Source: Runella sp.
Lineage (GTDB): Bacteria; Bacteroidota; Bacteroidia; Cytophagales; Spirosomataceae
Assembly (NCBI RefSeq): GCF_027484545.1
Contig: NZ_JAIXST010000034.1
Span: 1,211 to 65,210, forward strand
DNA: 64,000 nucleotides
Direction: 5' to 3'
Shown here: positions 10,088 to 43,212 of the stretch, in pieces
How the letters are laid out: each line of letters begins with the position of its first letter
Numbering within the stretch: position 1 is the stretch's first letter
The notes under the pieces: model-generated
Told to the model about the DNA's origin: nothing
Seen by the model: the letters and a program-made list of their open reading frames with translations, nothing else
Databases searched by the model: none
Made by a program: the position numbers and the translations under genes

Positions 10088-10151
10088 CAGTTTACAGTTA
10101 AAAAAAGTTTACAGGTTATATGCAGTAGGCAGTTAAAAATAGGGTAAATTT

Positions 10152-11526
<1,375 letters not shown>

Positions 11527-24193: not shown

Positions 24194-25123
24194 CTGCAAA
24201 CTGTAACCCCCAAACTAATTGTTATTCTTGGCCCTACAGCCTGTGGGAAAACTCATTTGGCTACTCATTTGGCCTATAAGATGAATGGCGAAATCATCAG
24301 CGCTGATTCGCGGCAGGTGTATCGGGGAATGAGCATTGGAACTGGCAAGGATTTAGGTGAATATGTCGTTAATAATCAACCGATTCCGTATCATTTGATA
24401 GACAATGTAGAGGCAGGAGATTCCTACAATGTTCATCGTTTTCAACAAGATTTTCAACGGGCGTATTCGAATATTCAGGAGCGAAGCCGAACTCCGATTT
24501 TGTGCGGTGGTACGGGGCTTTACATCGAAGCCGTTTTGAAAGAACATCAGTATACGGCCATTCCCGTTGATGAAAATTTGAGAGAAACCTTGTCTCACTG
24601 CTCGAATGAAGAGTTATTGCAAAAGCTCCATTCCACTCCTTCTGCTTATACTCCGTTAGCTGATACCTCTACCCGAAAACGCCTCATTCGTGCCATTGAA
24701 ATTACCCTATTTTTACAAAGTTATCCGTTGTCCGTTATCCGTTATCCGTCCATTAATTATCAAATTTTCGGTCTTGATTTGCCCGTAGAAGAACGACGTG
24801 CCCGAATCACACGACGGTTGCATGAGCGTTTACAAAATGGCATGATTGAAGAAGTGCAGGGATTGCTGGCTCAAGGAATTTCTGCCGAAAAGTTGATTTA
24901 CTATGGTTTAGAATATAAATTTATCACAGAATACCTCGTAGGTACGTTAGAGTATGGTACGATGGTCGAACGCCTCACTATCGCCATCCACCAATTTGCC
25001 AAACGTCAGATGACGTTTTTTCGCAAAATGGAACGTGATGGAATGAACATTCATTGGCTGGATGCGTTATTACCTATGGAAAAACTCATTGAAATCATTC
25101 TAAACCTGGATATGTCATGCTAA
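24194..25123 (+). CDS. miaA: tRNA dimethylallyltransferase (start codon uncertain, CTG 24194 proposed)
   Basis: P-loop LIVILGPTACGKT lies in frame upstream of the ORF-track start 24257; IISADSRQVYRGMSIGTGKD, CGGTGLYI, FAKRQMTFFR. Confidence 0.88.
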   Translation: MQTVTPKLIVILGPTACGKTHLATHLAYKMNGEIISADSRQVYRGMSIGTGKDLGEYVVNNQPIPYHLIDNVEAGDSYNVHRFQQDFQRAYSNIQERSRTPILCGGTGLYIEAVLKEHQYTAIPVDENLRETLSHCSNEELLQKLHSTPSAYTPLADTSTRKRLIRAIEITLFLQSYPLSVIRYPSINYQIFGLDLPVEERRARITRRLHERLQNGMIEEVQGLLAQGISAEKLIYYGLEYKFITEYLVGTLEYGTMVERLTIAIHQFAKRQMTFFRKMERDGMNIHWLDALLPMEKLIEIILNLDMSC

Positions 25124-39876: not shown

Positions 39877-39880
39877 TTGT

Positions 39881-39893
39881 GTTATCCGTTATC
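39881..39893. repeat. GTTATC heptamer pair at the 3' end of the four-helix gene
   Basis: GTTATC at 39881 and 39888; contains the gene's stop codon. Confidence 0.7.
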
Positions 39894-40265: not shown

Positions 40266-40270
40266 TTTCG

Positions 40271-40297
40271 GATAACTGATAACAATTAACGGTTAAC
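40271..40297. repeat. GATAAC-type heptamer array upstream of the four-helix gene
   Basis: GATAAC 40271, GATAAC 40278, ATTAAC 40285, GTTAAC 40292; exact 7-bp period. Confidence 0.8.
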
Positions 40298-42290: not shown

Positions 42291-42313
42291 ATTTACTGTT
42301 GTCCGTTTTTTTT

Positions 42314-42424
42314 GTTATCCGTAAAACGTTATCTGTTATTTGTGAAATCTGTTATCCATGCAATTGTCATTTGCTACCGGGTTAGTTAGAACTTCTGATA
42401 ACAGATAACAATTAACTGATAACT
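42314..42424. repeat. Inverted GTTATC / GATAAC heptamer arrays in the sdhC-sdhA spacer
   Basis: GTTATC-type units at 42314, 42321, 42328, 42335, 42351; GATAAC-type units at 42397, 42404, 42411, 42418. Confidence 0.8.
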
Positions 42425-42426
42425 AC

Positions 42427-43212
42427 CTACATACTCTTAATAAAGAAGTACAAAGGCATGAGAGCAAAGCCAATCGGAATCACAATTCCAAAAATACCTA
42501 TTCCCAGAAAATTGAAAATAGGGTTGTATTTGGGGTGATTCAGACCCAGTGTTTGAAAAGCGCTTCTGAAACCGTGTACTAAGTGAAACGACACGGCAAA
42601 CATGGAAAGGACGTAGAAAAATACCAAAAGTGGATTTTTAAAGCCTTCCATCACGCTGCGGTACAGGTCTTTGGCAATGACTACGCGCGTGTTGCTTTCT
42701 TCGCGGATGTATTCTTCCAATTTGCTTTTAATTTGCCCTTCATACGGTGTAGCTACGGTTTCGCCCGTGACGAGATTCTGCTCGTATTGGGTATAAGGCA
42801 CGTATCCAAACTTATACTCAAACCAGAAATTAGACATGTGAACCACGATAAACACCAAAAGAATTGTTCCTAAAACGGCCATATTGCGTGAAAACCACGA
42901 GCTATTGGCACTGCCACCGTTGATGACGTATCGCTGATCTCCCCGTGCCTGACGATTTTGGTAAGCCAGGTACAAACCTTCGATGGCGTGAAGAAGAATG
43001 AAAGCGTACAATCCGTACGAAATAGTTTTTACGAGCGGGTTGGTCGTCATAAAAACGGCGTAAACGTTAAAAGCCAGTCCGTTATCCTGTTTGAACAACT
43101 GTAAATTTCCGCTCATGTGAACAAGTAGGAAAGAACATAAAAATAGGCCGGTGAGGGCCATGACCAACTTTTTTCCAATCGAGCTTGATAGTGTTTGCGT
43201 AACCCAAGACAT
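42427..43212 (-). CDS. sdhC: Succinate dehydrogenase cytochrome b subunit
   Basis: SSIGKKLVMALTGLFL, LVHMSGNL, FHLVHGFRSAFQTLG. Confidence 0.95.
   Translation of the reverse strand: MSWVTQTLSSSIGKKLVMALTGLFLCSFLLVHMSGNLQLFKQDNGLAFNVYAVFMTTNPLVKTISYGLYAFILLHAIEGLYLAYQNRQARGDQRYVINGGSANSSWFSRNMAVLGTILLVFIVVHMSNFWFEYKFGYVPYTQYEQNLVTGETVATPYEGQIKSKLEEYIREESNTRVVIAKDLYRSVMEGFKNPLLVFFYVLSMFAVSFHLVHGFRSAFQTLGLNHPKYNPIFNFLGIGIFGIVIPIGFALMPLYFFIKSM

Follow-up and report, generated by a model that had tools for sequence, protein, structure and literature searches.

The spacer between sdhC and sdhA contains two inverted heptamer arrays that probably represent a gene-less member of the hairpin family of the neighbouring sdhA–sdhB cassette, kept as an intercistronic stem-loop, and no attachment site; we put the probability of this reading at roughly 0.6. 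The cassette itself lies at the next junction of the same operon, where arrays of the same unit bracket a small PF05635 gene, here called IVP-A, and we refer to its gene-less counterpart at sdhC–sdhA as the twin. Coordinates are those of the window, i.e. the whole stretch of 64,000 nt that was analysed. G000 designates the genome of the window and G017 that of a sister species, its closest relative.

Direct reading of the spacer (42291–42426, 136 nt, in a minus-strand operon) located GTTATC on the plus strand at 42314, 42328 and 42351 and GATAAC at 42397, 42404 and 42418. The inner hexamers are 40 nt apart (42357–42396); if the 5′ unit next to the loop is taken at its full seven bases, 39 nt are left for the loop. 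In transcript sense, the TAG stop codon of sdhC (42427–42429) adjoins the hairpin element and is followed by GTA, four GTTAnnN heptamers, the loop, five to six NnnTAAC-type heptamers, the leader and the ATG of sdhA, as listed in Table 1. In two relatives, the G of the sdhC stop codon is itself base 1 of the first heptamer. The 13-mer GATAACAATTAAC is present at both junctions (42404–42416 and 40278–40290). The initial annotation, made from the letters alone, had described inverted GTTATC...GATAAC arrays with this common 13-mer and a gap of about 40 bp, and all of it, coordinates included, was correct on direct reading, as were the names given to the flanking genes.

Table 1. Features of the sdhC–sdhA–sdhB region, with positions in the window and sequences in transcript sense.
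Feature	Position	Strand	Sequence or basis
sdhC, cytochrome b558 subunit, 261 aa	42427..43212	(-)	TIGR02046, b558 family, 154.6 bits
Twin 5′ arm	42396..42423	(-)	GTTATCA GTTAATT GTTATCT GTTATCA
Twin loop, 39 nt	42357..42395	(-)	differs among orthologues; unlike PF05635 gene
Twin 3′ arm	42313..42356	(-)	GATAACA GATTTCA CAAATAACA GATAACG TTTTACG GATAACA
sdhA leader, A-rich, unpaired	42291..42312	(-)	AAAAAAACGGACAACAGTAAAT; alignment of orthologues
sdhA flavoprotein, 662 aa	40302..42290	(-)	FAD_binding_2 and Succ_DH_flav_C
Cassette 5′ arm	40270..40297	(-)	GTTAACC GTTAATT GTTATCA GTTATCC, then GAAA, ATG
IVP-A, four-helix bundle, 127 aa	39882..40265	(-)	PF05635/TIGR02436, 23S rRNA intervening sequence protein
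Cassette 3′ arm	39880..39893	(-)	GATAACG GATAACA, then CAA, ATG (sdhB)
sdhB iron-sulfur subunit, 254 aa	39112..39876	(-)	expected Pfam domains

Genome-wide, the hexamer occurs at a frequency of 0.46 per kb on both strands. The 111-nt element contains six exact hexamers where about 0.05 are expected, which is far beyond chance (Poisson P ~1e-11, by hand arithmetic). Over the whole window there are 46 matches against 28.9 expected, the surplus being made up by three clusters. A combined ORF and family search found no ORF of at least 30 aa with a family match in the spacer.

The likeness between the two junctions extends to irregularities of the arms. The 5′ arms of the twin (from five genomes), of the sdhA–sdhB cassette (from four genomes) and of the left end of a multicopy element of G017, described below, were aligned without gaps; each has four units, and the second unit is deviant in all of them (GTTAATT; in the G017 element, GAAATTA). 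In the 3′ arms, TTAACGGACAACAGT is common to the twin and the cassette of G018. Since deviant units are common to both junctions, they argue for homology and not for parallel slippage, and the term twin, chosen in the initial annotation, thus holds for both arms. The last codons and the stop codon of IVP-A fall inside the cassette 3′ arm. Only six strict GTTATC hairpins occur in the 7.1 Mb of the genome, one of them 2 kb from the sole GTTATC-armed gene, and it is unlikely that twin and cassette lie so near each other by chance (P ~0.008, by hand arithmetic). The twin is also the only array hairpin of G000 that occupies a second junction beside a cassette with the same unit; for the other seven PF05635 genes of this genome we found no second-junction twin of their own unit, merely pieces of their own arms.

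The direction of descent follows from the distribution of the two forms. Metagenomic relatives of the small gene (46–84% identity) lie exactly at sdhA–sdhB in 25 of 80 cases, in operons whose sdhA is only 66–92% identical to that of G000. Among reference Bacteroidota operons, such a relative occupies sdhA–sdhB in 4 of 80, and L004 has a gene of the IVP-A clade at this junction. This clade is flanked by GTTA-rich sequence upstream and TAAC-rich sequence downstream at 46 of 75 loci, compared with a single reversed case, and the GTTA...TAAC link persists down to 46% IVP-A protein identity. At sdhC–sdhA, the gap amounts to −10 to 26 nt in 14 of the 15 readable metagenomic loci; the fifteenth, L135, has a gap of 112 nt with a hairpin of another unit. 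The median spacer at this junction is 30 nt in 78 Bacteroidota reference loci. The sdhA–sdhB cassette is thus the more ancient of the two and by far the more common, and the twin derives from it, having originated inside the genus from a genus-specific arm form. Two further features of the metagenomic loci were noted. At 36 of 79, the small gene has its TAA stop codon supplied by the first TAAC unit of the 3′ arm, and loci L134–L213 reveal a second recurrent home of the small gene, directly upstream of a gene starting MKIAVVGTG.

Five species of the genus share the twin as an orthologous element. Over these, its 5′ arm is 92% identical and its 3′ arm at least 83%; sdhC in the same five genomes is 81% identical over all sites and 58% at third codon positions. 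With a 5′ arm conserved to 92% against 58% at third positions, the element is being maintained and does not behave as a decaying scar. Within the sdhA leader, the ACGGACAACAGTAAAT part is kept in all five orthologues, save changes in G017, and the 3′ arm of G000 is longer than that of the four other orthologues by about 16 nt (around TACGGATAACAAAAAAAA). The loops of G000 and G017 could not be aligned, and all five orthologous loops, aligned locally with the IVP-A gene, scored no higher than shuffled controls. Nor does the G000 loop show any likeness to the loop of the G017 element; the sdhC–sdhA loop of G017 is alone in sharing ATCAATACACT with the latter (P ~0.01). The arms could be kept up by selection on the stem, by one arm serving to correct the other or by lateral spread. 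Their upkeep does not obviously depend on IVP-A, as G009 has a perfect arm although its assembly yielded no gene of the IVP-A clade.

We surveyed both junctions in 18 operons of the genus (G000 and 17 others). At sdhC–sdhA, a GTTATC-type twin of 115–136 nt is present in G000, G017, G015, G007 and G009, a hairpin of TTGAAAAT units in G002, G003, G012 and G019, one of GTTATTG units in G010 and other short stem-loops in G001, G004, G005, G006, G008 and G018; the spacers of G014 and G016 (53 nt and 24 nt) are without a hairpin. At sdhA–sdhB, IVP-A is intact in G000, G017 and G018 and broken by a TGA nonsense codon in G007, and the 199-nt spacer of G010 retains 17 codons (MSNKIHSFEDLECWKAR...) between GTTATTG arms. 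G002 has a different PF05635 gene, IVP-B, with TTGAAAAT arms. Seven genomes have a plain, unrelated hairpin of about 90 nt and G006 a 79-nt variant of it. This plain hairpin (GTCACCCTGAAAGGGTCT...AGACGCTTACAGCGTGAC; loci L082, L087–L089, L092, L093 and L095) is the common and conserved allele at sdhA–sdhB in genomes devoid of a cassette. IVP-B of G002 (L086) and a PF05635 gene of a Chitinophagaceae MAG (L047) are 63% identical and both located at sdhA–sdhB; the two genes, from different orders, retain the identical 8-nt arm unit, TTGAAAAT. The units of the two junctions agree in three independent cases (G000/G017/G007, G002 and G010), an agreement that is at most suggestive because G018 and L135 break the rule.

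Comparison of close relatives indicates how such spacers change. The sdh genes of G007, G002 and G003 are nearly identical (branch lengths 0.006–0.06), and the coding flanks of G007 match those of G002 and G003 to 96–100% up to the stop and start codons, whereas the spacers are unlike at both junctions: G007 combines the GTTATC twin with IVP-A, G002 has TTGAAAAT units at both places, and G003 has TTGAAAAT units followed by the plain hairpin. Near-identical flanks around unlike spacers show that whole spacers are swapped as alleles. Likewise, between the IVP-B cassette of G002 and the plain hairpin of G003, the entire stop-to-start spacer of sdhA–sdhB differs while the adjoining codons are ~97% identical.

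A gene-less element with arms of the same type has recently multiplied in the sister species. This G017 element is 120 nt long, is represented by at least 40 scored copies at 81–100% identity (46 end-sequence matches) and is restricted to G017 among the genus genomes (loci L114–L133). TAAGTA and four GTTATC-type units precede a loop of 33 nt, which is followed by four units of the GATAAC type and a 25-nt tail ending in TACTTA; its ends are constant, its flanks unrelated, and the empty sites contain TA. For six insertions, the orthologous site of G000 is bare AT-rich DNA. Judged by these copies and their empty counterparts, it is established that elements of this arm type can multiply without a gene, with about 46 copies in G017 at sites that are empty in G000. 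All 46 right-end matches in G017 resemble the short copy, and a non-exhaustive search of them revealed no long, transposase-bearing partner. The sdh twin starts with TAGGTA and has no matching right end, so that it half-shares the ends of the G017 element. The other GTTATC hairpins of G000 have loops unrelated to that of the twin, and recent copying within G000 is thus not demonstrated.

The alternative that fares best is that a full PF05635 cassette once stood at sdhC–sdhA and that an internal deletion took the gene and spared the arms. Decay of just this kind is seen at the neighbouring junction, in the nonsense codon of G007 and in the 17-codon stump between the GTTATTG arms of G010, and a distant uncultured Bacteroidetes genome (L009) does have a PF05635 gene between arms of its own, of GTAGAAA units, at sdhC–sdhA. 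We nevertheless regard a deletion on the spot as doubtful. The loops of all five orthologues score no better than shuffled sequences against the gene, the arms are retained far above silent sites, unlike those of a scar, and direct insertion of gene-less copies is known from the G017 element. Moreover, neither gene nor stump was found at sdhC–sdhA in any of the 18 genus operons. The suggestion that some relative would carry a small gene at this junction has therefore come true in one distant genome and in none of the genus. The initial annotation would have been refuted had no relative carried a gene here and had the arrays not been conserved; the arrays are in fact conserved in five species, and L009 has such a gene. 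As to the post-deletion site that it envisaged, gene decay inside a bracket is real next door, but a loop unlike the gene, a genus with no gene at the place and gene-less copies that spread alone leave this origin possible and unproven.

To place the twin among the repeats of the genome, array hairpins were searched throughout G000. About 190 loci have hairpins of inverted 7–9-nt arrays, compared with about 50 expected from a decoy, and about a dozen are of the GTTATC type. The flanking genes are co-directional at 85, convergent at 29 and divergent at 19 loci, and the G-richer arm comes first in 112 hairpins versus 39. All eight PF05635 genes of G000 have inverted short-repeat arrays of their own, each with a different unit. 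Such arrays also frame genes outside PF05635: a 137-aa ORF that we take, from its translation, to be GxxExxY/PD-(D/E)XK-like lies between CACATAGA arrays, a 158-aa hydrophobic and presumably membrane-located ORF between AATGAGTG arrays, and a 215-aa ORF, dioxygenase-like as we read its translation, has a full GAATGAC hairpin on either side (loci framed in this way are G000:C69:9142-9701, G000:C136:64684-65630 and G000:C226:12051-12807). Within the window, positions 10122–10225 (G000:C321:11329-11435), also detected in the genome-wide search, hold a (TACTGCC)n array and its inverted counterpart, the same architecture with another unit, and positions 24720–24752 (GTTATCC GTTGTCC GTTATCC GTTATCC) lie inside a miaA-like ORF (24257..25123, plus strand), where they are read as ...LQ-SYPLSVIRYPS-INY... 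with the frame unbroken. Five Y1_Tnp genes (IS200/RAYT-like; G000:C168, C245, C58, C257 and C193) are flanked by GC-rich REP-like palindromes, a second and separate repeat system in G000.

Raw tandem counts are misleading in other genomes, since a gene family of G002 and G007 has arrays of this kind within its reading frame. In this paralogous family (L098–L108), GATAAC GGACAAC CGATAAC TGATAAC stands in frame beside (GGCAAG)n tracts, the array copies are strongly strand-biased along the chromosome, and the tail of the protein contains a ...PNPV... motif by which we assume it to resemble a T9SS C-terminal sorting domain.

It is conceivable, if rather unlikely, that the IVP-A clade of proteins makes up, together with GTTA-core arms, a single autonomous/non-autonomous system akin to REPIN–RAYT or transposon–MITE pairs, yet without a recognisable nuclease, in which the protein reads its own 7-nt unit. 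The twin and the ~46 G017 copies would then be its non-autonomous members and be kept or mobilised in trans. The GTTA...TAAC arms found across the clade (46 loci of 75, one reversed) and the use of a different unit by every PF05635 paralogue of G000 fit such a system. However, among 20 genomes of the genus, hairpin abundance showed no simple relation to the presence of IVP-A. Pattern matches to the GTTATC hairpin number 82 in G017 and 2 in G018, both of which have an intact IVP-A; G002, G013 and G015 have 6–11 matches and no IVP-A orthologue, and the perfect arm of G009 occurs without any gene of the clade in the assembly.

Folding of the spacer RNA, proposed in the initial annotation as a check, gave a stable structure (−28.0 kcal/mol, z = −3.1), which none of 200 shuffled sequences equalled. 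The opposite strand folds equally well (−30.4 versus −28.0 kcal/mol for the sense strand), and over 84 such hairpins there was no bias between sense and antisense stability (44 versus 40, P = 0.82). Thus, the sense RNA is not singled out as selected, and a role at the level of DNA fits equally. In a covariation test with the five orthologues, all 25 predicted pairs were invariant or altered on one side only; covariation support is missing because the paired arm positions are invariant. The junction gave no Rfam match, rRNA included, and no predicted promoter. There is no terminator-like site at 42291–42426, where a stem followed by an A run is found on the sense strand, and not a GC-rich stem with a U run.

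These data bear on a further alternative, a host-selected regulatory RNA stem-loop whose likeness to the cassette is secondary, arising through gene conversion or reuse of local repeats. A spacer capable of forming a stem-loop directly follows the sdhC stop codon in 15 of the 17 other genus operons, with at least five unrelated sequences (GTTATC, TTGAAAAT, GTTATTG, GGTTGTTGG and a 74-nt type), in Persicitalea the same junction holds a hairpin of the GAATGTC type, and arms and leader are conserved where the loop is free to vary. We still consider a dedicated regulatory RNA improbable. G014, G016 and most other Bacteroidota, with 2–50 nt at the junction, manage without a hairpin, similar hairpins occur at well over a hundred unrelated junctions, and neither a sense-strand bias in stability nor a known RNA family is in evidence.

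Very little speaks for a landing pad, that is, for a hairpin loop serving as the target of a cassette whose arms match, which would integrate, for instance, through arm-to-arm recombination. The arms do match those of the neighbouring cassette, and rRNA intervening sequences occupy the loops of helices (PMC4990558). On the other hand, the unfilled sdhA–sdhB alleles are the unrelated plain 90-nt hairpin (G003, G012, G019, G015 and others), the sites of the G017 element are bare AT-rich DNA in G000, filled and empty alleles differ across the whole stop-to-start spacer, and the filled version of sdhC–sdhA is absent from the 18 genus operons. Every available comparison shows empty alleles free of arrays; the arrays thus arrive with the insert. 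The pre-insertion site of the initial annotation finds no support in these comparisons, which are G002 versus G003 and the six G017-element sites versus G000. An operator array, with the GTTATC/GATAAC hexamers as putative binding sites for an sdh regulator, has the direct and inverted hexamers of operator architecture in its favour but is hardly credible, as the site lies inside the operon and not at a promoter, arrays of the same kind are found at roughly a dozen unrelated loci of G000, and close relatives have other units in the same place.

We therefore return to the gene-less relative of the cassette as the preferred reading. The twin has the two inverted heptamer arms of the cassette, closed over a short loop. 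It may have reached sdhC–sdhA as an arms-only copy, which we slightly favour, or as a complete cassette whose gene was lost afterwards. Once transcribed as part of sdhCAB, it would fold into a stem-loop of about 24 pairs that starts at the sdhC stop codon and leaves the conserved A-rich leader of sdhA free. The cell would tolerate this intercistronic structure and perhaps make use of it, probably as a site for a double-strand RNase (RNase III) or as an exonuclease barrier, in likeness to the stems of rRNA intervening sequences. By this analogy, and by that with REP stem-loops, the twin is probably a point between the cistrons at which the transcript is processed or stabilised. The conservation of the arms could also come from lateral spread or self-correction instead of selection.

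The locus combines features of several known systems. MITEs are non-autonomous transposon derivatives. The G017 element resembles them in its short inverted ends (TAAGTA/TACTTA), a TA-like target and filled versus empty orthologous sites; a non-exhaustive search found no transposase-bearing parent for it, and the sdh twin, unlike a MITE, is single-copy in sequence. In REP/BIME and REPIN–RAYT systems, extragenic hairpins are often intercistronic, gene-less copies outnumber the repeat-flanked gene, and REP stem-loops protect the upstream mRNA. The sdh locus likewise has intercistronic hairpins and gene-less copies beside a gene with the same flanking repeats, but here the flanked gene encodes a 127-aa four-helix bundle and not a Y1 transposase. 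A link to RAYT was considered and rejected, for the Y1_Tnp genes of G000 and G017 have GC-rich palindromes and no GTTATC arrays.

Inverted intergenic heptamer repeats have been described in Xanthomonas (GGGAATC) and in Nostoc/Calothrix (STRR) (Rehm et al., 2015; PMC4692102). About four units per array are preferred, and the arrays lie mostly between co-directional ORFs and are transcribed, 70 of 186 in X. campestris having a convergent array close by on the opposite strand; the units are G-tracts, read as G-quadruplex formers, and neither a gene family nor mobility is named (PMC4692102). The twin agrees with these pairs in having about four 7-nt units per array, two convergent arrays and co-directional neighbours (sdhC/sdhA). 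It differs in its unit, GTTATCN, which has single G residues only and no G-tract.

A second point of comparison is the 23S rRNA intervening sequence (IVS) of Coxiella burnetii (helix 45) and Leptospira, which bears an ORF of the PF05635/S23p family (Warrier et al., 2016; PMC4990558). In Coxiella, its terminal inverted repeats with tandem heptamers (GACAGAT) form a long stem that is cut by RNase III, and the number of heptamer units varies by strain (PMC4990558). Twin and IVS have in common a long heptamer-bearing stem made of terminal inverted repeats and a link to the same protein family. Unlike the IVS, the twin lies in a protein-coding operon and not in a 23S rRNA helix, and it has no ORF; the PF05635 ORF, which is optional in the IVS, is absent from the 39-nt loop and present in the cassette next door.

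We found no paper that links operon PF05635 genes to such arrays or to gene-less derivatives. This locus adds to the published work by showing that the gene-less twin descends from the cassette, by presenting stages of decay within one operon, by the scoring of arm conservation against silent sites and by a dated burst in which a gene-less relative spread to sites that are empty in the sister genome. Abundant as they are, PF05635 proteins lack an explanation, and many bacterial genomes have an excess of heptamer repeats for a cause that is not known. Here, two junctions of one transcript present the cassette intact, with a nonsense codon and reduced to a 17-codon stump, its gene-less twin and unrelated plain alleles. 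In cultivable Spirosomataceae, one could test whether the arms alone suffice for function or mobility, whether this requires the four-helix-bundle protein and whether the operon mRNA is processed like rRNA. For annotation, spacers of this kind are to be treated as repeat elements and not as degraded genes or attachment sites.
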